From Geobacter sulfurreducens PCA (GTDB lineage Bacteria > Desulfobacterota > Desulfuromonadia > Geobacterales > Geobacteraceae): DNA of 32,000 nt. The translations under genes and the position numbers were made by a program. The DNA is taken from assembly GCF_000007985.2 (NCBI RefSeq), contig NC_002939.5:3480001-3512000 (forward strand), given 5' to 3'. Under the pieces are notes generated by a model. The model was given only the letters and a program-made list of their open reading frames with translations. It did not search any database and was not told the DNA's origin. Every line of letters starts with the position of its first letter. Within the stretch, counting starts at the first letter, position 1. Shown here piece by piece: positions 3,174-19,620 of the stretch.

Positions 3174-3254
3174 GGACGCGACAGAATCCGAGACTGTGCC
3201 TGCAATGCGGACCATCAGGGGCCGCAATTTAACATCACAAGGAGGTAGCAGCAG

Positions 3255-3740: not shown

Positions 3741-3757
3741 TTATTTTCTGATGGTAT

Positions 3758-3788
3758 GCCCTCCTCGGCGACGGGGAGGGTGCATTTT
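3758..3788 (+). terminator. candidate rho-independent terminator/attenuator after hcp
   Basis: Short GC stem ccctcc (3759-3764) pairs with ggaggg (3775-3780), followed by tgcatttt. The stem is only 6 bp, so this may be partial termination at most. Confidence 0.4.
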
Positions 3789-3858
3789 CAGATAATCTCA
3801 ACATTGCAACATGGCGTGTGCATTACCCGAAGATGGCAAAGCAATTGCGAGGTAGCAA

Positions 3859-4314: not shown

Positions 4315-4353
4315 TTCATTCAACAACTTGATACCGAACAGTAATAATTTCCA

Positions 4354-5286: not shown

Positions 5287-5342
5287 GGGGGTCATCGCCA
5301 CCGCCTCTCTGAGCAATTCGTAAGTTTCACGAGGAAAACGCC

Positions 5343-7436
5343 ATGACAATCCAAAAGGCCGCGGCAAGCCTCCTTTCTCAGGGCTCAACATCAAGCTTTC
5401 AGTTCGAGATTCCCGCCACCAGGCACTTACTGTCGGTAGCGGGATTCACCGTCGACGAGCGTATATCCCATCCCTATGACATCCACCTCACCCTGGCCAC
5501 AAAGGACAATGTGGATCTCGACGAGGTGATCGACAAGGAAGCCGTGCTTTCCGTAGATCATGAGGGCGGAACGCGCTATTTCCACGGTGTTGTCCGGGAA
5601 TTCACCTCTCTCGGGACGGACGGCGACTACGACCTCTACCACGCCCACATTGTGCCGGCCCTGTGGTTCCTTTCGCTGGAGCAGGATTGCCGTGTTTTCC
5701 AGTTCAAGAACGTTCAGGACATAGTCGCCGAAATCCTCGAAGAGAGTAATATCACCAGTGACCGCTACCGCTTCGCACTCTCCAGGGAGGACCGCCTGCG
5801 CAAATTCTGCGTCCAGTACCGGGAAACGGACCTGAACTTTGTCTCGCGACTTCTCGAAGAGGAGGGAATCTTCTACTTTTTCGAGCACTACGAAGACAAG
5901 CACGTCATCGTCTTTTCCGACACCGGCTCAGGCTATCTCTACATGCCCGGCAAGCGCCAGATCCCCTTCAACACCAATGACGGCATGGTGCCCGGAAAGG
6001 AGAGCGTCTTCGACTTCATCTACTCGCGCCGCGTTCGCCCCGGCAAGGTGTCACAGCGCGATTATTGCTACAAGCACACGAACCTCGACTTGACCACCCA
6101 GCGGCAGGGAAAGGTGTCCGCTCAGCGGGAGGTCTACGACTTCCCCGGCAATTACTTCAATGAGGAACGAGGTACCTATCTGGCCAACGTCCGCCTGGAG
6201 CGATTGCTGGTGCTCGGCGCGACCGCAGAAGGGCAGAGTTCGTGCCCTCGCATGATGCCGGGACACGAGTGGGAACTTTCCGGCCACGATTATGCCGGGA
6301 AGTATCTGCCAGTGGCAGTCATCCATCATGGCGCTCAGCCCCAGGTGCTTGGCGAGCATGCCGGAGATGGCGGCTTTCGCTACGACAACGAATTTATCGC
6401 CGTGCCGGCCGCCGTAACGGTCCGCCCCCAGATTGTCGCCGGCAGGCCCGCCATCGTCGGACTCCAGACTGCCGTCGTTACCGGCTCGCCCGGCGAAGAA
6501 ATCCACGCCGACCCCGACGGCTACCTGCGGGTGAAAGTGCAGTTTCCCTGGGACCGGCGTGGCCGGAAGGATGGCAGGACCTCATGCTGGGTCAGGGTCG
6601 GCCAGCCCTGGGGAGGCGGTGGATGGGGAACCCAGTTTCTGCCCCGTGTTGGAGACGAGGTGCTTGTCACGTTCCTTGAAGGCGACCCCGACCGCCCCAT
6701 GGTAATCGGCAGTGCGTACAACTCCGAAAATCAACCACTGTACGCTTTGCCCGCCAGTAAAACCCAGAGCGGCATCCGCACCCGCAGCTACCCAAACGGC
6801 GGTACTGACAATTTCCATGAACTCCGCTTCGAGGATAAGAAGGGAAGCGAGGAGATCTACCTGCAGAGCGAAAAGGACTGGAACATTCTGGTTAAAAACG
6901 ACAAGGGGCAGACTGTCGGGCGGAACGAGAGCCTGACCGTCGGCAACAACCGCTCAAAAACGGTGGGGGTGGATCAGAGCGAGAGTGTCGGTGTCAACAA
7001 GTCCATCCAGGTAGGGGCAAACCACAACGAAAGCATCGGCGCCAACATGACTCTGAGCGTAGGCGGTTTCAAGAATGAGACTGTCGGCATAAATTCACTC
7101 GAAACAATCGGCGGTGCAAAGGAGCTAGCCATTGGCGGCCTCTACCAAGTTGCGGTAGGCGGCGTCATGAACGAGACGGTTGCCGGCGCCAAAACGGAAG
7201 AAGTCGGACTGGCAAAAGCGGTGTTCGTCGGCAACAACATGAGTGAGAACGTAAAAGGTGACAGAACCACCAATACAAACGGCAACTACACGGAAACCAT
7301 CAGCGCCAAATATTACGCCAAAGCTGACGAATATGTCATCGAGGCGCCCAAAATCACGCTTAAGGCCGGTTCTTCATCCATTGTCATGGATGGGAGCAGC
7401 ATAACGATCAAGGCGAGCAAAATTTTCCAGAATTGA
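5343..7436 (+). CDS. vgrG: T6SS spike protein VgrG (TssI), no C-terminal effector extension
   Basis: 697 aa. It has the gp27-like N-terminus (FQFEIP...ISHPYDIHLTLA), a gp5 OB region (WVRVGQPWGGGGWGTQFLPRVGDEVLVTFLEGDPDRPMVIGSAYN) and C-terminal beta-helix repeats (xVGxNxSxxVG). Confidence 0.95.
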   Translation: MTIQKAAASLLSQGSTSSFQFEIPATRHLLSVAGFTVDERISHPYDIHLTLATKDNVDLDEVIDKEAVLSVDHEGGTRYFHGVVREFTSLGTDGDYDLYHAHIVPALWFLSLEQDCRVFQFKNVQDIVAEILEESNITSDRYRFALSREDRLRKFCVQYRETDLNFVSRLLEEEGIFYFFEHYEDKHVIVFSDTGSGYLYMPGKRQIPFNTNDGMVPGKESVFDFIYSRRVRPGKVSQRDYCYKHTNLDLTTQRQGKVSAQREVYDFPGNYFNEERGTYLANVRLERLLVLGATAEGQSSCPRMMPGHEWELSGHDYAGKYLPVAVIHHGAQPQVLGEHAGDGGFRYDNEFIAVPAAVTVRPQIVAGRPAIVGLQTAVVTGSPGEEIHADPDGYLRVKVQFPWDRRGRKDGRTSCWVRVGQPWGGGGWGTQFLPRVGDEVLVTFLEGDPDRPMVIGSAYNSENQPLYALPASKTQSGIRTRSYPNGGTDNFHELRFEDKKGSEEIYLQSEKDWNILVKNDKGQTVGRNESLTVGNNRSKTVGVDQSESVGVNKSIQVGANHNESIGANMTLSVGGFKNETVGINSLETIGGAKELAIGGLYQVAVGGVMNETVAGAKTEEVGLAKAVFVGNNMSENVKGDRTTNTNGNYTETISAKYYAKADEYVIEAPKITLKAGSSSIVMDGSSITIKASKIFQN

Positions 7437-7467
7437 ACCCAGGGCCACGGGATATGCGGAGAATGAT

Positions 7468-7970
7468 GTGAGAAAAAAGGCTTCAGCTATTTCGTTTGGA
7501 ATTAACGGCACCCTGTCGGAAGGGTTTCGCGTCGGCCGCATCGTTTCCGCAACCGACAACAGGTTTATCGTCGATTACCCGGAGAACTCTCTGGGTCCCA
7601 TCGCCGCCCGGCTCACGACCTCGGTGAAAAACCGGCTTCTGGACACGGGCAACCCGGCAGAGGAAAAGAAATTCTCCTGGCATTTGAGAACAACGATCCC
7701 GGACAGCCGATCATTGTCGACACAATGTACTCACTACTTGATGAGATCGCCGATGCGACAGCGGCCGAAACTGCGAAGGCCGTTCCGAACGAAGTGATTG
7801 TCGACGGGACGCGGATCACGTTTGATGCTCGGGAAGAAATCGAGCTCAAATGCGGAAAAGCCAGTATCGTTCTCACCAGCGCCGGCAAGGTAATCATCAA
7901 GGGAGCCTACCTGCTCAGCCAGTCTTCTGGCGAAAACAGGATCAAAGGCGCGTCCGTTGGAATCAATTGA
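7468..7970 (+). pseudogene. DUF6484-like small protein split by a frameshift into two ORFs (7468..7797 and 7725..7970)
   Basis: The N-terminal part (GRIVSATDNRFIVDYPENSLGPIAARLTT...) reads in frame 1. The conserved continuation EILLAFENNDPGQPIIVDTMY...VIVDGTRITFDAREEIELKCGKASIVLTSAGKVIIKGAYLLSQSSGENRIKGASVGIN reads in frame 0. The switch must lie at or near the A-rich run gaggaaaagaaatt (7660-7673). Upstream of it, frame 0 gives only Arg-rich nonsense and has a stop at 7503. Confidence 0.6.
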
Positions 7971-7990
7971 ATTATCACACTACTCAACTG

Positions 7991-9244
7991 ATGAATCCAA
8001 CAATATCATCCATATTACACCAACTTGCCGAGGAGGCAGCGTTTCTTTGGCATCTTCGAGGTGGCATCCTGCAATCTCCGCATTTTTCTCTGAGTGACCT
8101 CGAACGTTTCGATGAACGACTTGAAGCACAGGTCGATGGCTTGCGGGTGGGCGGCGACGCGTCCTGGGAGATATGCCGATCTGCGCTTCCGGGCGACACG
8201 GTCGAAGGACTCTTCGCCCCGGCGGTATTGGCCTTCGAAGGCGTCAACAGTGAGCACCTTCAGCAGGTCATGGACGCGATGGGGACGGATCGGGAGAAGG
8301 CCCGCGCCGTCATTTCCGCACTGGGGTGGCTTCCCTACGAACAGGCCAGGCCGCGCATAGAGCAATTACTGGCAGATGAATCGCCCTTTCATCGCTACAT
8401 CGGCATGGCGGCTTGCGCCATCCACCGGCACGATCCGGGCCCACAGCTGACAAGAGCCGTGAACGATACCTCCCCGTTATTGATGGCCCGCGGGCTCCGT
8501 GCATACGGGGAGTTGGGCAGAGGTTGCGAACTGAATGATTTCAGGCTGCAAGAATACTTGACGGACCACGACGACGAAATCCGTTTTGCCGCCGCATGGT
8601 CCGCGTCCCTTGCGGGCATTGGCACAGCCGTCGGCGTGCTGAGAAGTTTCGTCGCATCCTCATCCCGATATGCCGAGAAAGCCCTGAACGTTTCCGTGCG
8701 GTGCATGCGCCCCGAAAGCGCACGTGCCTGGCAACGGGAGCTCGCTCAATCGTCTGAAACGATCAGATTTGCTGCGATATGCGCGGGGGCTCTGGGCGAT
8801 CCGTCCCTTGTTCCGTGGCTCATCGACCGGATGGATACGCCGACGATCGCACGAGTGGCGGGTGAAGCGCTCACCATGATAACCGGCATCGATATCGAGC
8901 TCGAAGAACTGGCAGGCTCACGGCCCGAAGGCTTCAATGCCGGCCCCACCGATGATCCGAAGGATCTCAATGTGGCCATGGATGCCGATGAAAACCTCCC
9001 CTGGCCCGATGCCGACCGGGTTGCCGCATGGTGGGGCAAGAATAAAGGCCGCTTTCAAAGCGGAACCCGTTACTTTCTCGGGAAGCCGGTCTCGCCTGAA
9101 CATCTCCGGCTGGCTCTCAAAACGGGCCTTCAGCGTCAGCGTGCGGCTGCCGCCCTTGAGCTGGCGCGAATGAATCCTGGGCGACCGATGTTTGAAGTGC
9201 GGGCACCAGCGGCCAGACAGCGCAAAGAGGTTGCGGCCATATGA
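7991..9244 (+). CDS. TIGR02270-family / HEAT-repeat-like protein of unknown function (T6SS vgrG-linked)
   Basis: 417 aa from ATG 7991. The track start at 7850 overlaps the previous gene and encodes R/Q-rich junk. The N-terminus ILHQLAEEAAFLWHLR...FDERLEAQVDGLRV and the helical repeat character match my recollection of TIGR02270, a family noted in Myxococcus, Geobacter sulfurreducens and P. aeruginosa. Its stop overlaps the next start (ATGA at 9241-9244). Confidence 0.7.
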   Translation: MNPTISSILHQLAEEAAFLWHLRGGILQSPHFSLSDLERFDERLEAQVDGLRVGGDASWEICRSALPGDTVEGLFAPAVLAFEGVNSEHLQQVMDAMGTDREKARAVISALGWLPYEQARPRIEQLLADESPFHRYIGMAACAIHRHDPGPQLTRAVNDTSPLLMARGLRAYGELGRGCELNDFRLQEYLTDHDDEIRFAAAWSASLAGIGTAVGVLRSFVASSSRYAEKALNVSVRCMRPESARAWQRELAQSSETIRFAAICAGALGDPSLVPWLIDRMDTPTIARVAGEALTMITGIDIELEELAGSRPEGFNAGPTDDPKDLNVAMDADENLPWPDADRVAAWWGKNKGRFQSGTRYFLGKPVSPEHLRLALKTGLQRQRAAAALELARMNPGRPMFEVRAPAARQRKEVAAI

Positions 9245-10284
9245 GGACCCTGGCGATTACCGGGGCAAGCTGCGTTACTGCCGTAGGGCATGACGGCCCC
9301 TCGACGGCGGCTTCAGTCAGGGCGGGAATCTCCCGCTTTGCCGAGTACGACGACTATCGGGACGAAAACGACAACCCTATCACCGCGGCGCGAATCTGTG
9401 GGATTCATGACAGCTGGGATACCCCCCAGCGGATGGCCGGTGTCGCCGCTCTTTGCCTTGAAAAGCTCCTTGACGAGTATTTTCGTCGAGACGCACGTAG
9501 GCCTTCACAGATCCATCTCTTCCTTGGAGTAGCCTCCGACGAACGGCCCGGTCCGCGCTATGAAGAAAGCAGCCTGTTCCCGTTGCGCGGGATAATCGGG
9601 AAATGGACGGACAAACCCGGCCTTCAGGCTATCCGCCGGGGAAACGCATCCATGATGTGCTCCCTTGAACAGGCCGGTCGCCTGATCGACAGCAATCCCG
9701 ACGCGGTGTGCATCGTCGGCGGAGTTGATTCATTGCTAAGAACCTCGACCCTGAATTGGTTCGAAAAGGACTGCCGCCTCAAATCCGCAAGCTATGGCCG
9801 TCACCAGGGGCTCATTGCCGGAGAGGCGGTCGGGTTCATGGTCATTGGAGAACACGCAGGAGCAAAGCAGGCAGACAGGCCGATCCTCGGGAGTATTGCA
9901 GGGCTTGGGCTGGCAGTAGAACCAGCGCCGCGGGCATCGAGCGCCCTCGGACGAAACAGCGGGCTCACCGAGGCCTGCCATGCCGCCCTGAGCGGGGTGC
10001 AAAAAAAGGCGATCCGCGCGATATTCAGCGATCTCAATGGTGAAAACTCCCGAGCAAGGGAATGGGGCATGGCCGAAATGCGCTGTTTCGACAAACCGGA
10101 TGAAAGCAGGCGGCTCTGGACGCCGGCTAACTGCTACGGCGACATCGGCGCCGCCAGCGGCGTGGCCTTGGCAAGTATTGCCATGCAAGGGCTTGTTCGT
10201 GGATGGTTGCAATCGCCGATACTGGTAACCTGCTCCGATGACCATGGGCCATGCGGTGCCTTGGTATTGGAGAGCGAGAAATAG
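9241..10284 (+). CDS. beta-ketoacyl synthase-like (thiolase-fold) protein, probably catalytically degenerate
   Basis: 347 aa. It has a KS-like N-terminus (LAITGASCVTAVGHDGPSTAASVRAGISRF), a ...VCIVGGVDS segment and the C-terminal pattern TCSDDHGPCGALVLESEK. The canonical Cys/His/His motifs are altered (see findings). Confidence 0.8.
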   Translation: MRTLAITGASCVTAVGHDGPSTAASVRAGISRFAEYDDYRDENDNPITAARICGIHDSWDTPQRMAGVAALCLEKLLDEYFRRDARRPSQIHLFLGVASDERPGPRYEESSLFPLRGIIGKWTDKPGLQAIRRGNASMMCSLEQAGRLIDSNPDAVCIVGGVDSLLRTSTLNWFEKDCRLKSASYGRHQGLIAGEAVGFMVIGEHAGAKQADRPILGSIAGLGLAVEPAPRASSALGRNSGLTEACHAALSGVQKKAIRAIFSDLNGENSRAREWGMAEMRCFDKPDESRRLWTPANCYGDIGAASGVALASIAMQGLVRGWLQSPILVTCSDDHGPCGALVLESEK

Positions 10285-10303
10285 AATCCCCAAGGAGGCG
10301 ATC

Positions 10304-10684
10304 GTGGGAAAATCAACGGTTTTCGTTAACAAACAGGGAATGAGCAACAAAGGGAGTGGAGCTGTTGTCGTAAGCGGTCCGGATGTCTGTCTTACCCCGA
10401 TGGGCACTACAGTCGTACCGATACCCTATACCAACGTCGCCAGATCGGCCAGTCTCGCCGATGGCACAAAGACGGTGAAGATCGACGGCACCATGGGCGC
10501 AATCGATGGGTGCTGCTATAAAAAAAGCAGTGGTGATGAGTCTGGCAGTAAAAAAGGAGTTGGGTCGGGCACGATACAGGACAAGGCCGAGTTCATCAAC
10601 TACTCATTCGATGTCAAGATTGAGGGGAAAGGGGCATGCCGCAACTTCGACCCCATGACGCAGAACAATAAAAACGCCATGTAA
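10304..10684 (+). CDS. DUF4150 PAAR-like spike-cap protein without toxin extension
   Basis: AGGAGG RBS at 10293-10298, then GTG at 10304. The 126-aa product has VFVNKQGMSNKGSGAVVVSGPDVCLTP...PIPYTN...TVKIDG...SSGDE...KGVGSGT...NFDPMTQNNKNA, typical of DUF4150. The protein ends right after the PAAR-like domain. Confidence 0.85.
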   Translation: MGKSTVFVNKQGMSNKGSGAVVVSGPDVCLTPMGTTVVPIPYTNVARSASLADGTKTVKIDGTMGAIDGCCYKKSSGDESGSKKGVGSGTIQDKAEFINYSFDVKIEGKGACRNFDPMTQNNKNAM

Positions 10685-10735
10685 GCACGAGGTTTCCTCG
10701 GCCGCATCGCCACAGTTTTCGGGAGAGCACAAATC

Positions 10736-11113
10736 ATGGGAGTGAACAACGATTCCAATGCCGGGCCGTCGAGCGGCGAGCAGAAAGTTGTGCCCGATAA
10801 ACGGACCTTTCGCCTTAAGGTGGTCGAGTATCTTTCGTGGGACACATGCGATGAGAACAGCCGGACTTTCAAACTCGGTCACGAAGACAACAAACCCATC
10901 GGCGGCAGAGTATTCAAAATCAAGATGCCGGACGGCAGCATCGTTGAAAAGTCTACCGACGAAAAGGGAATAATTGAACTGACTGATCAGGACGCCAATG
11001 CAACGTTCGAAGTCATCTTCGAACCGGAAGAAGCCGCCCTTAACAACAAATACACCCTTTTCTACAACCGGACGGCTGTAGTGCAAACAAAACTCCCTGG
11101 GGACACCCCGTGA
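10736..11113 (+). CDS. hypothetical 125-aa protein, beta-sandwich-like; first gene of a three-gene coupled unit
   Basis: ATG at 10736. The segment GGRVFKIKMPDGSIVEKSTDEKGIIELTDQDANATFEVIF resembles carboxypeptidase-regulatory/prealbumin-like beta-sandwich repeats. Its stop overlaps the next start (GTGA at 11110-11113). I recognise no family. Confidence 0.5.
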   Translation: MGVNNDSNAGPSSGEQKVVPDKRTFRLKVVEYLSWDTCDENSRTFKLGHEDNKPIGGRVFKIKMPDGSIVEKSTDEKGIIELTDQDANATFEVIFEPEEAALNNKYTLFYNRTAVVQTKLPGDTP

Positions 11114-12993
11114 CAGACGCCAGCCACAAGCGAATCGAGGAAAACGATCCCAAGGGAAAGGTTCTCCAGCACGTCAAGCCCGACATGATGTGTGGCGAGA
11201 TCCACACTATCAGCATGTACCAGCCGACCGTCATTGTCGATTCCCACATGCACATTCAGAGCGGGCGCTGTGCCCCCCTGCAGTTCGTCAGGGACCAGGG
11301 GCCGGGCCCAGTGGCCATGCTGCAGACCGCGACTTCCGCCTCCCGGGGATGGATAGAGGGGAGCGGCCTCACCCTTGGCGCCATCTTTACGGCCTTGCTC
11401 GAGCCTGTCTGGGCTCCAGTGCGTGCCGTATCCCAGTTGTTCGACAATTCCCCCCACAATCCTGATGAAGGCATCCTGCAGGCCTCACCCTTAATTGATC
11501 TGGTAGCACAGCAGAAGAAAAAAACCATCGAGGTTGCCGAAGGCTTCATACTGGAGCGCGAGAAGGTTCTAACCAACTACCTCATGAAGGAAGCCCTTTA
11601 CAAGGATGCCCCCCACCTCATCTTCACCAGCGTAGTCATGACCATGGACATGGAGTACTGCCATATTGACGGCTACTTCGGTCTCAAGGTCTACAACCCC
11701 CTCTATACAAACCGAGAAGACATCGAAGCGAACAAGCCCTGCGCCTACTGGACGCCGCAGCATGGCGAGTGGGTAAAGGCCCCGCGCGACAATAGCGTCT
11801 ATGTAAGGCGGGACAAGCAGGCGAATACCTCGGAAAAGCACATGACGCCGGAGGAGTTTGATAGCTACCAGGAAGAGGCACGGATAGAAGGAATAACCGC
11901 CTCCTACCTGGATGACAAAGGCAATGCCAGAGAGGTGAAAATCGTCGCCGCGCCGGTGCTGCTGCCGGACGCGGAGACCGTTCTCTACGAGAACTGGATA
12001 AAGCAGCTGCAATACACCGAGCTTGCCGTCGTGAAATATCCTCTGAAGCTTCTCCCCATGTACCACTTCGATCCGCGCCGCTGGCATCTGGAGAAAAACG
12101 CCACCGAGGTGCTCGACAAGGTTGGAGACAGGGGTATCTACCTGGGGTTCAAGATGTACACCGCCCAGGGGTATCGTCCGTGGGATCCGCGGCTGCCGAT
12201 TCTGAAGGACTTCTACGCCAAATGCTGTCTGCGCGGCACCCCCATCGTGAACCACTGCACCCCGAAAGGGGCTGCCGCCTACGAACGAGATGAATACTTC
12301 GGTTTCGAACACCCCCTCGACGGGGAGAACGACCGGAAACAGAAGCAAGACAAAAGGTCGGCCTACTTCAGCAGGCACTTCGTCTCCCCCCAGGCCTGGA
12401 AGGAACTGCTGGACGGAGGCGCTGAACTGGTGGATGGACGGATGCACGTATCGTTTAAAAACCTGTACCTCTGCCTGGCCCACTTCGGCGGGCCTACCGA
12501 CCTGGGCATGGAATGGAACCGCCAGATTATTGAGATGATCGAAAGCGGGGAATACCCCAACCTCTACACCGACATCTCGTCATCATTCGCCGACAGCGGA
12601 TTTCGCAAGGATTTCAAAGCCATCATCCGGAAGCACCCAAAAATCAAAGACCGCATCCTGTTCGGCACCGACTGGTACATGACCTTCGTCTACAGCGCTC
12701 CCTTCGTGGGCAAGAATCTGTGGGACTACTGCACGGAAACCAAGAAGTTCCTGGATGACTTCGATACCAGCCTCTGGCCGGCCTTCACCCAGTATAACCC
12801 CTACCGCTTCTATCGGCTGGATCAGCAGATTGGACGGATTGCGGAGAACATCATTGAGATGCGGGCGAAAGATAAGAAGATTTTAGAAGTGCTCGATGAA
12901 CTCGAGGAGTATCAAATCAATGAAATTCGTAGAGAAGTTGCCTGGATCAAGTTTGCCAATCACGGCCATGTAATATTCAAGGAGACACCATGA
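11110..12993 (+). CDS. amidohydrolase_2 (ACMSD-type metal-dependent TIM-barrel hydrolase)-like protein with a large insertion; candidate T6SS cargo effector
   Basis: 627 aa. The ordered motif set is VIVDSHMHIQ (HxH, residues 44-48), GFKMYTAQG, PIVNHCTP, LCLAHFGG and ILFGTDWYM (Asp). About 300 residues separate HxH from GFKMY. There is no signal peptide. The start could instead be the internal ATGs (MMCGEIH...). Confidence 0.6.
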   Translation: MTDASHKRIEENDPKGKVLQHVKPDMMCGEIHTISMYQPTVIVDSHMHIQSGRCAPLQFVRDQGPGPVAMLQTATSASRGWIEGSGLTLGAIFTALLEPVWAPVRAVSQLFDNSPHNPDEGILQASPLIDLVAQQKKKTIEVAEGFILEREKVLTNYLMKEALYKDAPHLIFTSVVMTMDMEYCHIDGYFGLKVYNPLYTNREDIEANKPCAYWTPQHGEWVKAPRDNSVYVRRDKQANTSEKHMTPEEFDSYQEEARIEGITASYLDDKGNAREVKIVAAPVLLPDAETVLYENWIKQLQYTELAVVKYPLKLLPMYHFDPRRWHLEKNATEVLDKVGDRGIYLGFKMYTAQGYRPWDPRLPILKDFYAKCCLRGTPIVNHCTPKGAAAYERDEYFGFEHPLDGENDRKQKQDKRSAYFSRHFVSPQAWKELLDGGAELVDGRMHVSFKNLYLCLAHFGGPTDLGMEWNRQIIEMIESGEYPNLYTDISSSFADSGFRKDFKAIIRKHPKIKDRILFGTDWYMTFVYSAPFVGKNLWDYCTETKKFLDDFDTSLWPAFTQYNPYRFYRLDQQIGRIAENIIEMRAKDKKILEVLDELEEYQINEIRREVAWIKFANHGHVIFKETP

Positions 12994-14213
12994 ACTACTT
13001 GAAATGGCTATATTTTACTTTGATCAGCATCATCTTGTTTTCCACAAATGCGATCGCTCATGGAGGTAGTCAAATGGAACCCTCTTATCTGTACGAAATA
13101 CAAGACTTCACATCTGCGCAGTCTCTCGAACCCCGAATTTTCACGATTGGTGGTGGCCTATTCGGCGGCTACCGCAACGTTTCTGTCTTTCCAGTGCCTT
13201 TTGATAATGCTGTGGGAAGCAACGACATGGGCAACGCCATTACCATCATCTCCTTTCCCAAGGGGAAGATCGATTACGACCGCTACTTCCGCAATGCCGC
13301 GGACGACATGAGCGGCGGTGGAGAGTTTGTTTCGCAAACCGCCAAGGATATCCTGGGCTACGGCCAGGTTCGGCGTTTCCTGTTGTTTGACTTCAAAAAG
13401 AAACTGCACCGGGAGTACCGCATAGTGTTTCCAATTACACAATACATTGAAAAAATCGCTCTAGCCGATTCAGAACGCAAACGGTTTCTGTTTGAAATAG
13501 AATCGCAGAAGCGTAATGCCAAAGAACCATTCGATTCAAACAACTTTTTACAATTGATTGATTTGAGTGATGATAAGCACAAGGTAATAAAGGAAGTATT
13601 TAAGCCGGCTGGTACAATATGGACAACTACGAAAGAGAGAGTATTTCTGTACCATATCTTAGAAAAGAAACTTCAAGTTTTCGACATGAAGCTGGAGGTG
13701 GCCCACCATCCGCTGGAGGATGCTCTAAAGCAGTATAAAGACAAAATTGATTTTTCACGAATATATGTTCATCCCCAATTCCCCTTTGCTATTCTTCGCG
13801 GGAAAAAAGGGGCCGTCTATATTGGGTGGGAAAAGAAAAATATACCAGTGCCACATTTGTTGATAAGTGGTGCATCCCAGTTTGTTATCTCGCCAGATGG
13901 TCAATGGGTCGTTTTCAAATATGAACGCACAGGTGCTGCCAAGACCTACCTCATGCCCGTATCCGAAAAATACCCCCATTACCTGGGTTCCCCCATCCTG
14001 CTGGCAGATACGTATTTCGATGAAGGAAAATTCGCCTGGACCACCAACCCGACCGGTTTTGTCGGTTCAAGACTTGACAAGATCTACCACTGGGATTTGG
14101 AAAACCGGGACTTTCCCGAAAAGGGCAAGATGTCGTTCCACGACTACATCGTTAAGAACGATCTGGAAAAGCTGACCAGAGAGAAGAAGCAGGGACTTGG
14201 GAACAAGCATTGA
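12990..14213 (+). CDS. Sec-exported 407-aa protein, beta-propeller-like; candidate immunity protein
   Basis: Its start overlaps the upstream stop (ATGA at 12990-12993). The signal peptide is MNYLKWLYFTLISIILFSTNAIA/HG. An SPDGQWVVFKYERTG motif resembles TolB/WD40-like propeller blades. The gene is strongly AT-rich (22/60 G+C in 13441-13500, against 36/60 in 22081-22140). Confidence 0.55.
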   Translation: MNYLKWLYFTLISIILFSTNAIAHGGSQMEPSYLYEIQDFTSAQSLEPRIFTIGGGLFGGYRNVSVFPVPFDNAVGSNDMGNAITIISFPKGKIDYDRYFRNAADDMSGGGEFVSQTAKDILGYGQVRRFLLFDFKKKLHREYRIVFPITQYIEKIALADSERKRFLFEIESQKRNAKEPFDSNNFLQLIDLSDDKHKVIKEVFKPAGTIWTTTKERVFLYHILEKKLQVFDMKLEVAHHPLEDALKQYKDKIDFSRIYVHPQFPFAILRGKKGAVYIGWEKKNIPVPHLLISGASQFVISPDGQWVVFKYERTGAAKTYLMPVSEKYPHYLGSPILLADTYFDEGKFAWTTNPTGFVGSRLDKIYHWDLENRDFPEKGKMSFHDYIVKNDLEKLTREKKQGLGNKH

Positions 14214-14313
14214 ATGCCGCGACAAGACATTGGCGTATCGTGCGATGGTTCAGGCGTATTGCTGCGTGATGACTGTTTCAACAGCCTGCTGCGATATCAA
14301 CGAGGTAAAAAGT

Positions 14314-14433
14314 ATGGCAAAGACGTTGCGGCTCATCCTGTCCCCTGGTGATCAGCCTGCTCTGGATTATTACGGCCGGTACACTGACCCATCTGCGGTT
14401 GGCGGAAATTGTTGTGGATGCTCTGCAGCATAA
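14314..14433 (+). CDS. possible 39-aa Cys-rich peptide (MAKTLRLILSPGDQPALDYYGRYTDPSAVGGNCCGCSAA)
   Basis: GAGGT at 14302-14306, 7 nt before the ATG. It ends 21 nt before the DUF2169 start. Support is limited to the ORF, the RBS and its position. Confidence 0.25.
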   Translation: MAKTLRLILSPGDQPALDYYGRYTDPSAVGGNCCGCSAA

Positions 14434-14454
14434 CGTTAGAAAGAGACAGACCGG

Positions 14455-15462
14455 ATGGACCTCCTCAACTCCACCCCCTTCGCCGCCACCCCGCTCTTTC
14501 TCTCCGACCGCCACGGCGCCGAAACGCTCCTCGTCATCGTCAAGGGAACGTGGCGGATCAATCGGGACGGAACCCTCTCCGTGGCGGAAGAGCAGGTGCC
14601 AATCCGCTTCGAGCCTCTCTACTCCGGCGATCCCGCCTCATCGAGTCTCATCCACGACACCGACATCATACTGGAAAAGCCGGGGACCGACTGCATCCTC
14701 CTCGGCCACGCCTGGGCGCCAAAGGTGGGAGTCGAGTCGGTGGATGTGACCTTCGCCGTGGGGCCGGTGCGAAAGGCGGTGCGGGTCTTCGGCGAACGGA
14801 TCTGGATGAAGTGCCTGGGAATGGTGTCGATGTCGAGAGCTGCTCCGTTCGAGAAGATTCCCCTCGTCTGGGAGCGGGCCTTCGGGGGGGCGGATACGAG
14901 CTGGCCCGACCCGAAAAACCATGAATTCTGCCTCGAAAATCCGGTGGGTAGGGGCATTCTGGCGAAAAGAACGAAACAGGAGATCGACGGTCTTCGCCTT
15001 CCCAACCTGGAAGACCCGACACATCCCATAAGAAAGACCGACGACCATCCCCGGCCCATGGGGTTCGGGCCGATTCCGCCCCACTGGCAGCCTCGGGCGA
15101 AGTACGCCGGCACCTATGACGATCACTGGCGAAAGTACGTGAACCCCCTCCTGCCGGAGGATATGGATTCGCGCTTCCACTCGTCCGCACCACCGGGCCT
15201 CATGTCAAACCGTCACCTGTCGGGCACGGAACAGGTGCTTGTCGCAAACGCCTCGCGCAACGGCAGGCTGGAATTTACCCTGCCCGGCATCGCACCCCGC
15301 GTCTCGGTGGCGATCGGAGCGACGGTCCATGAACTGAAGATGCAGCTCGATACGCTCATCGTCGAACCGGACGAGGAGCGCCTTGTCCTTGTGTGGCGCG
15401 GAAACCACAATGTTCATGGGAAGCTTCACAGCCTGAAGAGGGTATGTATCGAGGCGAGATGA
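14455..15462 (+). CDS. DUF2169-family T6SS adaptor/chaperone protein
   Basis: 335 aa. The N-terminus LLNSTPFAATPLFLSDRHGAETLLVIVKGTWRI, together with PLVWERAFGG, NPVGRG, LPNLEDP, GFGPIPPHWQPR and LDTLIVEPDEERLVLVWRG, matches DUF2169 architecture as I know it. Confidence 0.85.
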   Translation: MDLLNSTPFAATPLFLSDRHGAETLLVIVKGTWRINRDGTLSVAEEQVPIRFEPLYSGDPASSSLIHDTDIILEKPGTDCILLGHAWAPKVGVESVDVTFAVGPVRKAVRVFGERIWMKCLGMVSMSRAAPFEKIPLVWERAFGGADTSWPDPKNHEFCLENPVGRGILAKRTKQEIDGLRLPNLEDPTHPIRKTDDHPRPMGFGPIPPHWQPRAKYAGTYDDHWRKYVNPLLPEDMDSRFHSSAPPGLMSNRHLSGTEQVLVANASRNGRLEFTLPGIAPRVSVAIGATVHELKMQLDTLIVEPDEERLVLVWRGNHNVHGKLHSLKRVCIEAR

Positions 15463-15533
15463 AAGGTCCCCGCTGACTGGCTGCGAGCGCGTGCAGAGGG
15501 AAAATTCCGGCAAACGGCACGGCTGCGCCGCCA

Positions 15534-15561
15534 TTGACAGCGGTTGTTCCACTGCTACAAT
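15534..15561 (+). promoter_or_regulatory. sigma70-type promoter for the ferredoxin-rubredoxin unit
   Basis: TTGACA (15534-15539), a 16-nt spacer, then TACAAT (15556-15561), about 32 nt upstream of the ferredoxin ATG. Confidence 0.5.
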
Positions 15562-15592
15562 GGACTCCATTCGACACACAAGGAGGCTTCAC

Positions 15593-15784
15593 ATGGCACG
15601 AATACCGACGGTTGATCAGGATTCATGCATCAGCTGCGGGCTCTGCGTATCGACCTGTCCGGGAGTGTTCCGGTTCAACGAGGACGGCAAGTCGGAGGTG
15701 TATGATCCCAACGGGGCCAGCGAGCAGGAAATTCAGCAGGCCATCGACGGGTGCCCGGTTCAGTGCATCAGTTGGAAAGGATAG
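15593..15784 (+). CDS. small monocluster [4Fe-4S]/[3Fe-4S] ferredoxin
   Basis: AGGAGG at 15581-15586. The 63-aa product is MARIPTVDQDSCISCGLCVSTCP...GCPVQCISW (CxxCxxC...CP motif). The upstream part of track ORF 15491.. is non-coding-like. Confidence 0.85.
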   Translation: MARIPTVDQDSCISCGLCVSTCPGVFRFNEDGKSEVYDPNGASEQEIQQAIDGCPVQCISWKG

Positions 15785-15850
15785 CCATCAACCACGGCTC
15801 GGAGTGATGGAGAAGAAATCCCTCTCCGGCTGGAAAGGAGACCATGGTCC

Positions 15851-16009
15851 ATGGAGCGTTGGAGATGTACCATCTGCCAGTACGAGTATGACCCTGAAGC
15901 GGGAGACCCGGAAAACGGCATAGATCCCGGCACGCCTTTCGAGGAGTTGCCCGATGACTGGGTCTGCCCCATCTGCGGGGCGGGCAAGGATCTGTTCGAG
16001 CCGGCCTGA
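15851..16009 (+). CDS. rubredoxin
   Basis: Absent from the supplied track because it is under 60 aa. My translation is [52 protein letters not shown], with two CxxC knuckles and the conserved rubredoxin core. AAGGAGA lies at 15834-15840. Confidence 0.9.
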
Positions 16010-16037
16010 TCGGCGGCTCCCATTGTCACAGCGGCAT

Positions 16038-16069
16038 AAGCCTCCCGCACGGGAGGCTTTTCATTTTTT
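16038..16069 (+). terminator. rho-independent terminator after rubredoxin
   Basis: aagcctccc (16038-16046), loop gcac, gggaggctt (16051-16059), followed by ttcatttttt. Confidence 0.75.
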
Positions 16070-16246
16070 AGCCGCTTGGCTGGATTCCTTGATAATGTCT
16101 ATCTGTGTACTGCCCTTGACCACCCGTACCCGCCAGACAAGGCCACAGTCGCCGCACTCCTTCACGGGCGACTCTTCCGAGCTGAACCCTTCCGAATGCA
16201 TGTCGATCTGGACCGCTGTTCTGCTGCCGCAATGGGGACACTTCAT
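16061..16246 (-). CDS. small zinc-ribbon protein (61 aa)
   Basis: On the minus strand, AAGGAGA lies 6 nt upstream of the ATG (rc of 16244-16246). The product is MKCPHCGSRTAVQIDMHSEG...VKECGDCGLVWRV, with two CxxC pairs. The longer track ORF to 16429 has an R/P-rich N-terminus that is unlikely to be coding. Confidence 0.55.
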   Translation of the reverse strand: MKCPHCGSRTAVQIDMHSEGFSSEESPVKECGDCGLVWRVRVVKGSTQIDIIKESSQAAKK

Positions 16247-16328
16247 CGTTTTCTCCTTTCGCCCGGCCGCCGTTGGCCGACGATCTCGCCGTGCATGAAA
16301 GCCGGCGACCTGAACTAAATGGTTATAC

Positions 16329-16357
16329 AGTATAGCAGCAAACGGAGGAAATGTAAG
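16329..16357 (-). promoter_or_regulatory. possible sigma70 promoter for the zinc-ribbon gene
   Basis: The minus strand reads CTTACA, a 17-nt spacer, then TATACT. This is a by-eye match only. Confidence 0.3.
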
Positions 16358-16404
16358 ACCGGGACGCGAAGTCGCGCGGGATAAGTACTCCACGGTCGTT
16401 GCGC

Positions 16405-16433
16405 TTGATTTTTCGCCGGACGGATGCAATACT
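16405..16433 (+). promoter_or_regulatory. possible sigma70 promoter for tatA
   Basis: TTGATT (16405-16410), a 17-nt spacer, then AATACT (16428-16433), about 35 nt upstream of the tatA ATG. The hexamers are weak. Confidence 0.3.
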
Positions 16434-16468
16434 CGCTGACAACTCTATGGTTTTTTGGAGGTTACTGT

Positions 16469-16660
16469 ATGTTCGGATTCGGCATGCCAGAGCTTATCGT
16501 GATTCTGATTATCGTTCTGGTGGTATTCGGCGCGGGACGGCTGCCGGAAATCGGTGGTGCACTCGGCAAGAGCATCCGCAACTTCAAGAAGGCGTCCGAG
16601 GGGAAAGAGGAGATCGAGATCAAACCTCAGAAGAAAGACGAACCCAAAAAAGACGCCTGA
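16469..16660 (+). CDS. tatA: twin-arginine translocase subunit TatA/E
   Basis: GGAGG lies 7 nt upstream. The product [42 protein letters not shown]... is canonical TatA (TM helix, then an amphipathic helix). Confidence 0.9.
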
Positions 16661-16676
16661 TCCGCTCGAACAACAC

Positions 16677-16709
16677 AAAAAGGGGCCGGCAATCCGCCGC
16701 CCCCTTTTT
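16677..16709. terminator. bidirectional rho-independent terminator between convergent tatA and the TPR gene
   Basis: The sequence is aaaaa-ggggccggc-aatcc-gccgccccc-ttttt, an 8-bp GC-rich stem with two bulges. An A5 run on one side and a T5 run on the other allow function on both strands. Confidence 0.55.
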
Positions 16710-16780
16710 GTTATGCATCAGGCTCCATCCCGCCGCGCCGGACGTTTTCTCCCGAATCTGCGGCGCAACCGGCCCACTGA

Positions 16781-18697
16781 TTATGTGCCGCTTTTTTTCT
16801 TTCCGGACGACGAACTCTTTTTCGTCGATTTCTTTTTCGTTGTACTCTTCTTGGCGGAGCTTTTCTTGCCGGACCTCTTCTTGGAAACGGCGGACTTGCG
16901 CCCTTTGGTCCCTTTCTTCTTCACGTACCGCTTCGGCTCCGGGCTCAGCTCATCCTTGATGTTGCTGAGAAGAACAGCCGTCTCTTCCATGCCAGGGTCG
17001 GCCTTTTTGGCCGCTTCCAGGGCCTCCTTGGCCTCGGTAAGTTTGCCGGTTTTCAGATAGATGCGCCCCAGGGCGTTGAGAGCCTTTGCGTGATCATCCT
17101 TGAGTTCGGTCGCTTTCCGGTAGCTCACCTCGGCTGAATCGTAGTCCTTGCGGAATTCATGAATGAGCCCGAGCTTGTAGTGGCTCATGGCATCGTTGGG
17201 AGCCAATTCGACCCCTTCCTGGAGAAGGGGGACCAGTTCATCGTATTTCTTCTCCTTGACGTAAATAGCTGTCAGGATGTTGCGGGCCTCGGCATCGTCT
17301 TTTTTGATGCGGAGCACCTCGCGATACTGCTTGGACGCGTCGTCCATCTGGTTCAACTTGCGGTAGACGGCAGCGAGTTCCCGATGGGCTTCCAGGTTGT
17401 CCGGGTCCAGTTTGAGGGCCTCGTTGTAAGAGGCTATGGCATCCTTGGTGTTCTTCGAGGACATGAAACCGCGGGCAAGCTTGAGATGGAGGACGGGATT
17501 GCTGTCGCCCCGCTTGAGGAGTTCGCGGTACTGCTCAATGGCTTGGGGATGGCTGCCGCGCAGGGTGTAGATATCGGCGAGTCGGCGCCGGGCGTCACCG
17601 TGCTCGGCAGAGAGTCGAACCGCCTGTTTGTATTCCACCACGGCCTCGTCGATGAGCCCCTTGCGCTCGTAGATAATGCCGAGGTTGTAATGATTAGCGG
17701 CATTGCCGGGCTTTACTCGCAGCAGTTCGCGGTAGGATGCAATGGCATCGTCATCGAGCCCCGCGGCTGCCTGGGCACCGGACAGCTTATGCAGCACCTC
17801 CGCGGACCCGGGACGCTCTTTCAGGGCAGCACGGTACTCCTCCACGGCCTTGGGGAACTCTTTGGCTGCCATCCGTTCGTCACCCCGACGGAGGTATTCT
17901 TCGGGAAGGACGCCTCGTTGGCGCCCGGAAAGGGTGTATTCGTACTCGGCGGCCTTGCGATCACCAAGTTTTTCATATGCTTCTGCAAGGAGGAGGTGGA
18001 TGCCGCGGTTGCCGGGATTGGCCAGTTGGGCCTGCTTGAGTTCCTGGACCGCGCCTTCGGTGCGGCCATCGGCCAGATAGAGAGATGCGAGGGCAAGGCG
18101 GGCATTTTCATTGGCCGGAGCAACGGTGAGGGCCTTTTTCAGCTCCTTCTCCGCCTCTTCCTTTTTGCCTGCCTGCCGGTAGACCTGTGCGAGGTCCACA
18201 CGAATCGACGGGTCGTCGGGGAGTTCGCGCAGGGCTTCGGCATAATGATAAAGGGCTAGGGAATAGAGGGAGCGTTCAGCAAAAATTTTGCCGAGGCCCT
18301 GATGATAGCGGGGCTTGGAATCTTCGGCCAGGGCGCGGGTCAGTTCCACCACGGCCTCGTCGGCGGAACCCTTGGCCAGCAGGGCCAGGCCGAGACTTCC
18401 TTGGGCATCGGGAAACGAAGGGTCCATCCGGAGCGTTTCGCGATATTCCGTCACCGCCTGGTCGAAGCGTTTTTCACGCTCGGCCCGGAGCCCCTTGACG
18501 AAATGGCCGGCAGCGCCGTCGGAGCAATATTCGAGGATTCGTTTTTCAGTATTCGCCCGGGCGTCCTCATCCTCGCCCGAAAGTGATTTGACAAGCCTCT
18601 TCGCCTCCCAGCACCGCTCCTGGGCGGCAACTGCCTCCCCCCCCAGCGCGGTCGCGGCCGACAGGGAAAGCACGAAGAGTGTAAGGTATTTTTTCAC
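16781..18697 (-). CDS. exported multi-TPR-repeat protein with C-terminal Lys/Ser-rich polycationic tail
   Basis: GGGAGGA RBS then GTG (rc of 18695-18697). The signal peptide is VKKYLTLFVLSLSAATALGGEAVAAQ. About 15 TPR-like 34-aa units follow (e.g. AEAYEKLGDRKAAEYEY, YNLGIIYERKGLIDEAVVEYKQAVRL). The C-terminus is KKKGTKGRKSAVSKKRSGKKSSAKKSTTKKKSTKKSSSSGKKKSGT. Confidence 0.8.
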   Translation of the reverse strand: MKKYLTLFVLSLSAATALGGEAVAAQERCWEAKRLVKSLSGEDEDARANTEKRILEYCSDGAAGHFVKGLRAEREKRFDQAVTEYRETLRMDPSFPDAQGSLGLALLAKGSADEAVVELTRALAEDSKPRYHQGLGKIFAERSLYSLALYHYAEALRELPDDPSIRVDLAQVYRQAGKKEEAEKELKKALTVAPANENARLALASLYLADGRTEGAVQELKQAQLANPGNRGIHLLLAEAYEKLGDRKAAEYEYTLSGRQRGVLPEEYLRRGDERMAAKEFPKAVEEYRAALKERPGSAEVLHKLSGAQAAAGLDDDAIASYRELLRVKPGNAANHYNLGIIYERKGLIDEAVVEYKQAVRLSAEHGDARRRLADIYTLRGSHPQAIEQYRELLKRGDSNPVLHLKLARGFMSSKNTKDAIASYNEALKLDPDNLEAHRELAAVYRKLNQMDDASKQYREVLRIKKDDAEARNILTAIYVKEKKYDELVPLLQEGVELAPNDAMSHYKLGLIHEFRKDYDSAEVSYRKATELKDDHAKALNALGRIYLKTGKLTEAKEALEAAKKADPGMEETAVLLSNIKDELSPEPKRYVKKKGTKGRKSAVSKKRSGKKSSAKKSTTKKKSTKKSSSSGKKKSGT

Positions 18698-18968
18698 AAA
18701 GGTCCTCCCAGAGTGGTTTGCTGCGAACTCGCCGCAACGTGAGGTTCGCAAGGGTCGGTGCCTGGCGGGCAGGCCTGGGCCGGAACGGATAATGCGGGTA
18801 TCGTCGGGAGACGGAAACCGTAGGGGTGCTCCGGGCGGAGAAAACACGCGGCGTGAGTCTGTGGCGCCGCAGACCCCGTGGGAAGGAGAAGGCAGCCACC
18901 GGAGCGACAGGGTCCGGACGGGAAGGGGCGGTGCGGACATTGTTCCAGCCAGAATTGACGACGGGCGG

Positions 18969-18997
18969 ATTATACACAGACGTCAGCCAAATTTCAA
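18969..18997 (-). promoter_or_regulatory. near-consensus sigma70 promoter reading toward the TPR gene
   Basis: The minus strand reads TTGAAA (rc of 18992-18997), a 17-nt spacer tttggctgacgtctgtg, then TATAAT (rc of 18969-18974). This predicts a leader of about 265 nt. Confidence 0.55.
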
Positions 18998-19071
18998 ATC
19001 ATTGTCATGCAATCCCAAGCGGCAAGCCGAGTTATACCGGTTTTCGCTGTTGGGCTCCGGAGGGTATTACC

Positions 19072-19100
19072 TTGACTTCACGGCTAAAGATGATTAAATC
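19072..19100 (+). promoter_or_regulatory. possible sigma70-like promoter for hsp20-lon
   Basis: TTGACT (19072-19077), a 17-nt spacer, then TAAATC (19095-19100). There is no convincing sigma32 -10 (CCCCATnT) element. Confidence 0.3.
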
Positions 19101-19170
19101 TTCAAAAGCCGGAAGGGTGGGCACGAAGATGTGCGCCCTCTTCCGGCCTTTCTGAACTCGCGGGGTGAAC

Positions 19171-19620
19171 ATGGCCGCATCTCCCAAGGATCCGCTCGAC
19201 TGGGCAGCACTGCTGCAGCTCCAGATGGACGAGGCGTTCGACTTCATTCTTCGCTCGGAAGCCGGCAGCGTCGCCGAATGTGATCTTTCGCCGCCCGTCG
19301 ATATTTTCGAGACGCCGGATGCCTTTTCCGTGGAGTTCGACCTTCCCGGCACCGATCCCGCCGACTTGTCGCTGAAGCTTTGCTGCAACATGCTGATCCT
19401 TGAAGGGGTGAAGCGGGACGATTCCCGCGAAGGGGGCAGCTACCTCTGCCTCGAGCGCCGCTTCGGGCGCTTCTGCCGAACCGTCGAAATCCCGCCGACG
19501 GTTGATGTAAGCGCCGTCCGTGCCGACTATCGCCGCGGCGTACTGACAGTGACCTTTCCCCGCCTCAGCGACCGGCGGAAGGTCATGCGGGATATACCGA
19601 TCATACAAGGAGACAACTGA
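19171..19620 (+). CDS. Hsp20/alpha-crystallin family small heat-shock protein
   Basis: The alpha-crystallin domain reads [30 protein letters not shown]...LILEGVKR...[16 protein letters not shown]...[16 protein letters not shown]. The start is ATG 19171 or GTG 19165. Its stop overlaps the lon start (TGATG). Confidence 0.85.

Follow-up and report, generated by a model that had tools for sequence, protein, structure and literature searches.

The locus described here raises the question of what a protein that databases annotate only as an 'amidohydrolase family protein' does at the end of a type VI secretion system (T6SS) gene cluster and, if it is a toxin, how it is delivered, what it attacks and how its producer is protected. 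The window under study is a stretch of 32,000 nucleotides from Geobacter sulfurreducens PCA (NC_002939.5, positions 3,480,001 to 3,512,000), the DNA of which is ~100% identical to that of strain CP072789 over positions 3100-20700, with the exception of one patch. Within it, three open reading frames (ORFs) encoding proteins of 125, 627 and 407 amino acids (aa) overlap one another by four nucleotides each (GTGA at 11110-11113 and ATGA at 12990-12993) and are flanked by the genes for a toxin-less PAAR cap and a DUF2169 protein. Coordinates, overlaps and flanking genes all read exactly as in an earlier annotation made from the letters of the window (the original prediction), in which the 627-aa protein was proposed as a T6SS effector. 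We consider it likely that the cassette at 10736-14213 is a split polymorphic T6SS toxin with its immunity gene, in which a metal-dependent amidohydrolase directed at peptidoglycan in the periplasm would be held in check by an exported beta-propeller. The features of the cassette are as follows.

10736-11113, + strand: putative prealbumin/transthyretin (TTR)-like linker module of 125 aa (ORF call; homologue fusions; Pfam SpaA matches)
11110-12993, + strand: predicted effector of 627 aa, a divergent amidohydrolase-superfamily barrel (GTG start; PF04909; AlphaFold2 (AF2) model; Foldseek; invariant residues)
11110-11229, + strand: N-terminal ~40 residues of the effector, a putative docking segment (predicted local distance difference test (pLDDT) score <50 at residues 1-32, yet conserved)
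12790-12993, + strand: C-terminal helical tail of the effector, residues ~561-627, strain-variable (helices at 555-625 with high pLDDT; differences cluster at 561-623)
12990-14213, + strand: predicted exported seven-bladed beta-propeller of 407 aa, candidate cognate immunity protein (AF2; Foldseek; downstream of the effector in 69/77 loci by phmmer and in L050 and L072 by profile)
12990-13058, + strand: predicted Sec signal peptide of the immunity protein (MNYLKWLYFTLISIILFSTNAIA / HGG; read from the sequence)
12750-13950, no strand: AT-rich recombination patch (sliding-window three-way DNA comparison)

The 627-aa protein and its relatives

The assignment of the 627-aa protein as a T6SS cargo effector is well supported by comparative genomics, because its homologues are fused to PAAR or PAAR-like domains, adjoin vgrG or sit within T6SS clusters, and the original prediction, which had called for a survey of such linkage, is in agreement with this outcome. 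A word-indexed search returned 367 relatives, several of them with an N-terminal Tox-PAAR-like fusion, and an exhaustive search at E<=1e-30 returned at least 373 clusters (50% identity). Around homologues, 77 genomic loci were inspected, their ORFs being scored with the proteins of the window; upstream of the effector, PAAR-like proteins and the 125-aa domain were found in 31, VgrG in 23, PRK06147 in 23 and TIGR02270 in 18, and DUF2169 was present in 14. Fusions to Tox-PAAR-like (PF13665) occur in P0064, P0103, P0105, P0113, L009 and P0389, and fusions to the canonical PAAR domain (PF05488) in L045, L066, L074 and P0351, while in L033 and L069 (Holophagaceae, Chitinispirillia) the effector gene directly follows vgrG. 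The effector pair lies within core T6SS clusters in L003, L013 and L028, and in other Desulfuromonadales its place within the core cluster is beside TssA/TagF or TssK and TssBC-Hcp; P0286, P0343 and P0279 have PAAR or immunity-like genes as neighbours. The original prediction had named residence in metabolic operons as one of the findings that would speak against a toxin; no recognisable metabolic operon surrounds the effector gene in any of the 77 loci, and a metabolic-operon reading was rejected on this ground.

The fold was assessed from both sequence and model. The Pfam family Amidohydro_2 (PF04909), also carried by most homologues, matches the protein at 40.3 bits against a cut-off of 26.4 (E=4.3e-10), over residues 345-570 only, which correspond to profile positions 108-289. 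An AF2 model computed on a 72-sequence alignment (pLDDT 87.3, predicted TM-score (pTM) 0.88) contains eight strand/helix units, and all 13 of its Foldseek matches in the PDB at E<=1e-3 are amidohydrolase-superfamily barrels, with BB4693 (3IRS), LigJ, IDCase, LigW, LigI, dihydroorotase, isoaspartyl dipeptidase, phosphotriesterases and TatD-like proteins as neighbours. The modelling thus agrees with the amidohydrolase_2-type TIM barrel foreseen in the original prediction, and the protein is predicted to have the (beta/alpha)8 barrel of the amidohydrolase superfamily, in a divergent form that is interrupted by two large insertions. With the Amidohydro_2 enzymes (ACMSD, LigI, LigJ, LigW, IDCase, BB4693/3IRS), it would share the barrel, an HxH motif at strand 1, His residues at strands 5 and 6 and an Asp at strand 8. 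It differs from them in that its C-terminal half alone fits the Pfam model, in its two insertions, its strand-4 Lys and its variable helical tail, and in its proposed role, which is that of a toxin rather than of a catabolic enzyme.

The motifs proposed for the active site follow one another in the order claimed (DSHMH at 44-48, GFKMY at 346-350, NHC at 381-383, AHFGG at 457-461 and FGTDW at 518-522), and their key residues are invariant. In all 67 full-length homologues (67/67), which come from the Desulfobacterota, Myxococcota, Acidobacteriota and Fibrobacterota, the residues H46, H48, Q299, R323, R324, K348, Y350, H382, H458, D488, D521 and W522 are conserved without exception, as is D180 wherever it is aligned. 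In the model, the HxH pair (H46, H48) follows strand 1, K348 lies on strand 4, and H382, H458, D488 and D521 follow strands 5, 6, 7 and 8, respectively, the predicted strands that carry ligand-type residues at their ends being 41-48, 379-382, 454-457 and ~516-519. Such a ligand pattern would fit an ACMSD-like mononuclear site or, because the strand-4 Lys (K348) is invariant, a binuclear site with a carbamylated lysine.

Extra residues are present in the barrel, as had been noted, but not as the single insertion of ~300 aa first described. They total ~250 and form two insertions, one helical (residues ~49-170) and one of mixed beta/alpha structure (residues ~185-310), separated by strand 2 (171-177, followed by an invariant MDMEY.H), the second preceding strand 3 (314-319, followed by an invariant DPRRW). 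The invariant residues D180, E182, H185, Y213, W214 and Q299 lie in or beside these insertions and are probably functional. Two altered copies of the effector gene were encountered among the loci: in L034 (7924-11065) an insert of ~950 bp interrupts the copy between profile positions 291 and 286, and in L028 (9956-11177) profile positions ~49-296 are missing from within it, the downstream immunity gene being intact in each.

The original prediction knew of no characterised T6SS effector with an amidohydrolase_2 fold, a statement that is overturned by the Myxococcus xanthus pair TsxE (MXAN_5572, amidohydrolase 2 plus LysM) and TsxI (MXAN_5571), a genetically shown T6SS effector-immunity pair (Troselj et al., 2018; PMC5801462). 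TsxE is encoded after vgrG2, causes sensitive cells to round up in a T6SS-dependent manner that is neutralised by its immunity protein, and has a homologue in Nannocystis (N. exedens) that carries PAAR; its target was not known in 2018, nor does a review from 2023 give a mechanism. Judging from the shared domain pair, the genomic context and the presence of Myxococcota members with the same layout, it is highly probable that the 627/407-aa family includes TsxE/TsxI. The two pairs have in common an amidohydrolase_2 domain, linkage to vgrG/PAAR, a downstream immunity gene without a recognisable family and a suspected cell-wall target. The Myxococcota members of the family are P. pacifica L072, Myxococcales L050 and Anaeromyxobacter P0368, and L072 and L050 show the LysM/peptidoglycan-binding plus amidohydrolase_2 layout of TsxE, with a gene of the 407-aa family downstream.

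There are also differences. The window protein has the amidohydrolase_2 domain only, without LysM, the combination of LysM/peptidoglycan-binding and amidohydrolase_2 domains being found in the distant members L045, L066, L077 and L072. Furthermore, whereas tsxE directly follows an orphan vgrG, the window effector gene is ~3.3 kb from vgrG, with accessory, PAAR-like and linker genes between, and its product would be delivered via a separate DUF4150 PAAR-like tip, a free-standing linker and Tvp-type accessory proteins. When a profile of two myxobacterial homologues was searched against a set of 5.8 billion proteins, it returned 28 matches, none of them named M. xanthus, and the clusters of the most GC-rich or LysM-bearing candidates and of their neighbours have as named members only Anaeromyxobacter and Chitinivibrionales. 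Literature searches pairing T6SS with a TIM-barrel amidohydrolase, or T6SS with PF04909, returned nothing.

Linker, immunity candidate and recombination patch

The 125-aa protein had been described as a small beta-sandwich protein encoded by a flanking gene; the beta-sandwich is probable, but the gene is not an independent one. Its domain occurs as a C-terminal extension of the PAAR-like protein in ~19 loci, at the N-terminus of the effector in 3 and as a free-standing protein, as in the window, in ~8, and all three modules are found in one polypeptide in L009, L037 and L038. Because these four arrangements occur, the PAAR-like protein, the linker and the amidohydrolase would constitute one functional chain that in G. 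sulfurreducens is split at its domain borders. The Pfam SpaA prealbumin-like fold is matched by 17/29 homologues of the 125-aa protein (best E=4.9e-5) and by the window protein itself at a sub-threshold level (E=0.036). Its best PDB profile match, a weak one (E=0.14), is to 6H56, the effector domain of Pseudomonas aeruginosa VgrG2b, over a stretch that we take to be the TTR-like part of that structure. Taken together with the fusions, these matches suggest that the protein is a prealbumin/TTR-like linker module.

The C-terminal effector of VgrG2b acts in the periplasm. The likeness to VgrG2b would lie in a metalloenzyme toxin joined to the spike via a prealbumin/TTR-like beta-sandwich; the differences are that the VgrG2b enzyme is a zincin and not a TIM barrel, and that the linker described here follows a DUF4150 PAAR-like protein, not VgrG, and is a separate polypeptide. 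At the other side of this presumed junction, the disordered N-terminus of the effector contains the near-invariant residues E10, Q11, N12, G16, K23, G29, S35 and P39, and in the fused homologue L037 the linker domain runs straight into this segment, a pattern from which we infer that the N-terminal ~40 residues dock onto the linker/PAAR-like proteins.

The gene for the 407-aa protein is preceded by a ribosome-binding site (AAGGAGA), and both the signal peptide (...STNAIA/HG) and the SPDGQWVVF motif ascribed to its product are present. The protein has no Pfam or NCBIfam family match. Its AF2 model (pLDDT 86.3, pTM 0.83) contains about 28 strands and gives 617 Foldseek matches in the PDB at E<=1e-3, the top ones being WD40-type propellers. 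A hydrophobic N-terminal signal is found in 61/64 of its homologues, many with a lipobox-like xSSC/xSGC sequence. Where no homologue lies directly 3' of the effector by phmmer or, in the two myxobacterial loci, by profile, the contig is truncated. Tandem arrays of propeller paralogues, of up to six or more copies, occur in L027, L074, L006, L035 and L037, and orphan cassettes of truncated toxin and immunity genes in L020. In this locus, from a metagenome-assembled genome of Smithella (8989-20953), one full effector-immunity pair precedes three effector copies that lack the N-terminus, beginning at profile positions 171, 171 and 372, each with its own propeller gene. Arrays, orphan cassettes and adjacency are immunity-like, being classic signatures of polymorphic-toxin immunity, and together with the signal peptides they suggest that the 407-aa exported propeller is the cognate periplasmic immunity protein, as had been proposed.

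Further evidence comes from a patch of DNA that overlaps the end of the effector gene. Over ~12750-13950, identity to CP072789 falls to 56-93% and identity to Geobacter anodireducens is 97-100%, while the flanks are 99-100% identical to CP072789 and 90-98% identical to G. anodireducens. The G+C fraction of the patch is 0.44-0.48, as against 0.57-0.62 in the flanks, and the two counts reported earlier (22/60 at 13441-13500 and 26/60 at 12841-12900) are correct; the low G+C of this segment is a consequence of the exchange of the patch. It covers the last ~65 codons of the effector gene and most of the immunity gene. In comparison with CP072789, the effector has 27 differences, 23 of which are at residues 561-623, and the immunity protein of that strain is 75% identical; in comparison with G. 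anodireducens, the differences are spread across residues 8-530 and spare the tail, and the immunity protein is 99% identical. Since tail and immunity protein both match G. anodireducens and not CP072789, the effector tail and the immunity gene were inherited as a unit. The horizontal acquisition suggested in the original prediction therefore applies to the AT-rich part and not to the whole cassette; more precisely, the exchange is a ~1.2-kb allelic replacement of the effector C-terminal tail plus the immunity gene. An insertion-element origin of the patch was rejected, no flanking mobile-element repeats being found in a scan of 10200-16800.

The co-replacement of tail and immunity gene supports a physical interaction between effector and immunity protein. 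It is reminiscent of Rhs/CdiA loci, in which toxin 3' end and immunity gene are likewise replaced together and truncated toxin copies carry their own immunity genes, as in L020, with the difference that the part exchanged here is the C-terminal portion, or tail, of one catalytic barrel and not a self-contained toxin domain.

Proposed target and rival explanations

In the mechanism that we propose, the 125-aa protein would connect the PAAR-like tip, itself without a toxin, with the conserved segment at the N-terminus of the effector, and the effector would exit the cell on a VgrG/DUF4150-PAAR-like spike, the DUF2169, PRK06147, TIGR02270 and DUF6484 proteins aiding assembly of the tip. The effector would be a metal-dependent barrel with HxH, Lys348, His382, His458 and Asp521 as ligand-type residues, and would act in the periplasm of the attacked cell, where its most likely reaction would be the hydrolysis of an amide bond, either in peptidoglycan itself or in a molecule linked to it, with loss of shape and lysis as the result. 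The producer would be shielded by the exported beta-propeller from the adjacent downstream gene, and the specificity of the effector-immunity interaction would reside largely in the C-terminal helical tail, which would be swapped with the immunity gene between strains.

A cell-wall substrate is favoured mainly because three kinds of peptidoglycan-binding module (LysM, PG_binding_1 and OmpA_C-like) have been recruited independently in distant homologues, either fused to the catalytic domain or encoded just upstream of it. Homologues from the Fibrobacterota either combine PAAR, LysM and amidohydrolase domains, in that order, in one protein or are encoded directly beside a small LysM ORF, those from the Desulfobacterales carry LysM plus PG_binding_1 or OmpA_C-like modules, and a Myxococcales homologue has a PG_binding_1 protein encoded just upstream. 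These modules also support the envelope target suggested in the original prediction. In addition, P0278 (1181 aa) has a Peptidase_M19 domain (membrane dipeptidase) N-terminal to the amidohydrolase domain; such a toxin with two enzymes hints at chemistry on peptide stems.

Several points weigh against this proposal. Amidohydro_2 is the sole domain matched in the 627-aa protein, the Pfam scan giving no peptidoglycan-binding domain; neither its sequence nor a 72-sequence profile matched any PDB entry usefully; Foldseek gives the model weak matches (E values of 5e-5 to 1e-3, with TM-scores of 0.36-0.55 on the target); the proteins nearest to it in structure (LigJ, IDCase, LigW, LigI, BB4693) act as decarboxylases, hydratases or lactonases, with no peptidoglycan hydrolases among them; and the metal ligands were named from the positions of predicted strands and helices, without superposition. 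On the side of delivery, the DUF6484 gene of the window carries a 2-bp (AG) insertion at ~7659-7665 and a G>A change relative to both CP072789 and G. anodireducens, the frameshift dividing it into ORFs at 7468-7797 and 7725-7970. The corresponding protein TvpC is essential to assembly of the VgrG1-Paar1 spike in Serratia, and the frameshift may mean that the delivery route is crippled in this strain or may be a sequencing error. Lastly, the only published study of the Geobacter T6SS (PMC10580878) omits the amidohydrolase and names the PRK06147 protein as the effector 'tse4'. The comparative data and later literature argue, contrary to this label, that the PRK06147 protein is an adaptor and the amidohydrolase the toxin.

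The T6SS pair may be real and the periplasmic substrate something other than a peptidoglycan amide, such as lipid II, undecaprenyl precursors, the lipoprotein-peptidoglycan link, lipopolysaccharide or phospholipid head groups, on which the chemistry would be like that of phosphotriesterases or lactonases, or another envelope molecule, in which case the peptidoglycan-binding modules of the homologues would merely retain the toxin in the periplasm. This is unlikely in our estimation, although the fold family is chemically broad (phosphotriesterases, lactonases, dihydroorotase and TatD-like proteins are also returned by Foldseek), the window protein carries no such module and TsxE itself has no known substrate; the independent recruitment of several module types, the M19 dipeptidase fusion of one homologue and the rounding of TsxE victims speak against it.

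A further alternative, which we regard as distinctly improbable, is a non-hydrolytic reaction of the Amidohydro_2 type (decarboxylation, hydration or lactone opening) on an envelope carboxylate, for example D-Glu or meso-diaminopimelic acid of the peptide stems. Both the closest Pfam family and the best structural hits do consist of decarboxylases and hydratases (the ACMSD class, LigJ, IDCase and LigW), and the invariant Arg323-Arg324 and Tyr350 could bind carboxylates; however, the invariant strand-4 Lys and strand-6 His resemble those of hydrolytic binuclear amidohydrolases, and the structural matches are too weak for chemistry to be transferred from them. We know of no precedent for a toxin of this type.

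That the 627-aa protein is an ordinary metabolic amidohydrolase beside an unrelated propeller within a T6SS island, or a non-toxic structural or adaptor component, is scarcely credible in spite of its bare database annotation and its omission from the effectors named in PMC10580878, given the lack of any recognisable metabolic operon in the loci surveyed, the fusions to PAAR/PAAR-like and peptidoglycan-binding domains, the obligate pairing with the propeller, the immunity arrays and orphan cassettes, and the strain-level swap of tail plus immunity gene. A periplasmic peptidoglycan amidase delivered by the T6SS is retained as the preferred reading.

The surrounding T6SS island and its significance

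The end of the T6SS cluster in the window comprises, in order, genes for a PGAP1 lipase, TssB, TssC, Hcp, a small exported protein, a LysM protein and VgrG, followed by DUF6484, TIGR02270 HEAT, PRK06147 ketosynthase-like and PAAR-like genes, the three ORFs of the cassette and DUF2169; unrelated genes (TPR, Lon, chemotaxis) come after these. The delivery-related genes are listed below.

5343-7436, + strand: VgrG spike protein (Phage_GPD, Phage_base_V and Gp5_trimer_C domains, E=2e-95; VgrG upstream of the effector in 23/77 related loci)
7468-7970, + strand: DUF6484 (TvpC-like) accessory gene, frameshifted (an intact 166-aa DUF6484 gene is present in L081 and L083)
7850-9244, + strand: TIGR02270 HEAT-repeat accessory protein (NCBIfam TIGR02270, 646 bits against a cut-off of 207; upstream in 18/77 loci)
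9241-10284, + strand: PRK06147 ketosynthase-like protein, proposed T6SS adaptor, TvpD (NCBIfam PRK06147, 386.9 bits against a cut-off of 342; upstream in 23/77 loci)
10238-10684, + strand: toxin-less PAAR-like (DUF4150) spike tip (PF13665, E=4.9e-38, residues 44-148, no extension)
14455-15462, + strand: DUF2169 (TvpA-type) chaperone for DUF4150 PAAR-like proteins (PF09937, E=4e-107; in 14/77 related loci)

Two of these starts are probably downstream of those listed. For TIGR02270 the true start is probably ~7991, giving 417 aa as in the gene call of the relative L081, and for the PAAR-like protein it is likely to be the GTG at 10304, giving 126 aa, the same length as in L081 and L083. The PRK06147 protein has been proposed as an adaptor (PMC7714669) and as part of the Tvp complex (PMC13373197), and the role of DUF2169 proteins with DUF4150 PAAR-like proteins is documented (PMC13373197); PMC11883445 also appears relevant. 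In the Smithella/Syntrophales loci L015, L020, L022, L023, L032, L034 and L037, PRK06147 and TIGR02270 form one fused ORF, and because of this fusion a joint accessory role would be expected for the two proteins, which conflicts with the 'tse4' effector label of the ketosynthase-like gene. The arrangement resembles the Tvp systems (P. aeruginosa PA0095-PA0099/Tse7, PMC13373197) in that DUF6484, PRK06147 and DUF2169 genes flank a DUF4150 PAAR-like gene, and differs from them in that DUF2169 comes after the cargo, an extra TIGR02270 HEAT gene is present, the toxin is not fused to the PAAR domain and DUF6484 is frameshifted.

At 42-1091 is the gene for the PGAP1-type alpha/beta hydrolase, a lipase-like effector of a paralogous PRK06147/PAAR-like module that lies just upstream of the window; a PGAP1 gene and the amidohydrolase pair occur in one island in Pelotalea (L002) and in L026 as well. 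Between hcp and vgrG are two AT-rich genes, one for a small exported protein of 151 aa (3859-4314; signal peptide ...LLLGAVSAHA; G+C 0.46) and one for a LysM protein of 310 aa (4354-5286; G+C 0.50) whose N-terminus weakly resembles a transglycosylase, the latter protein being 'tse3' of PMC10580878. These two look like a second immunity/cell-wall-effector pair. On the other side of DUF2169, small ferredoxin-like and rubredoxin genes (15590-16060; gene calls from the identical L081 locus) end in a strong hairpin at 16038-16059 that resembles a terminator, and the T6SS island probably has its true end there. Scans for promoters, terminators and repeats over 10200-16800 yielded matches at chance level only.

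The feature is not new in kind, and is described as a member with split architecture of a T6SS effector-immunity family that is widespread but biochemically uncharacterised, and of which TsxE/TsxI is the probable type member. What is new is the family-wide set of catalytic residues, the recurrent fusions to peptidoglycan-binding modules, the propeller immunity protein and the natural chimera of tail plus immunity gene. The list of G. sulfurreducens effectors gains a well-supported effector-immunity pair that was omitted from the sole published inventory and, if TsxE belongs to the family, its target and mechanism acquire a concrete footing in a defined family, a mutable residue set and fusions that point to peptidoglycan. 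The natural chimeras, strains that are identical except for effector tail and immunity gene, allow the specificity surfaces, and hence strain compatibility, to be tested, which is of relevance to Geobacter consortia and direct interspecies electron transfer. More tentatively, and with doubt prevailing at present, the family, TsxE probably included, may represent a new class of T6SS cell-wall toxin, in which an amidohydrolase barrel with two insertions peculiar to the family cuts or modifies peptidoglycan in a manner unlike Tae, Tge and Tpe, and a detachable tail sets the immunity specificity that is read by a periplasmic beta-propeller. If this is true, exchange of the tail and the immunity gene alone could suffice to alter the compatibility of a strain.

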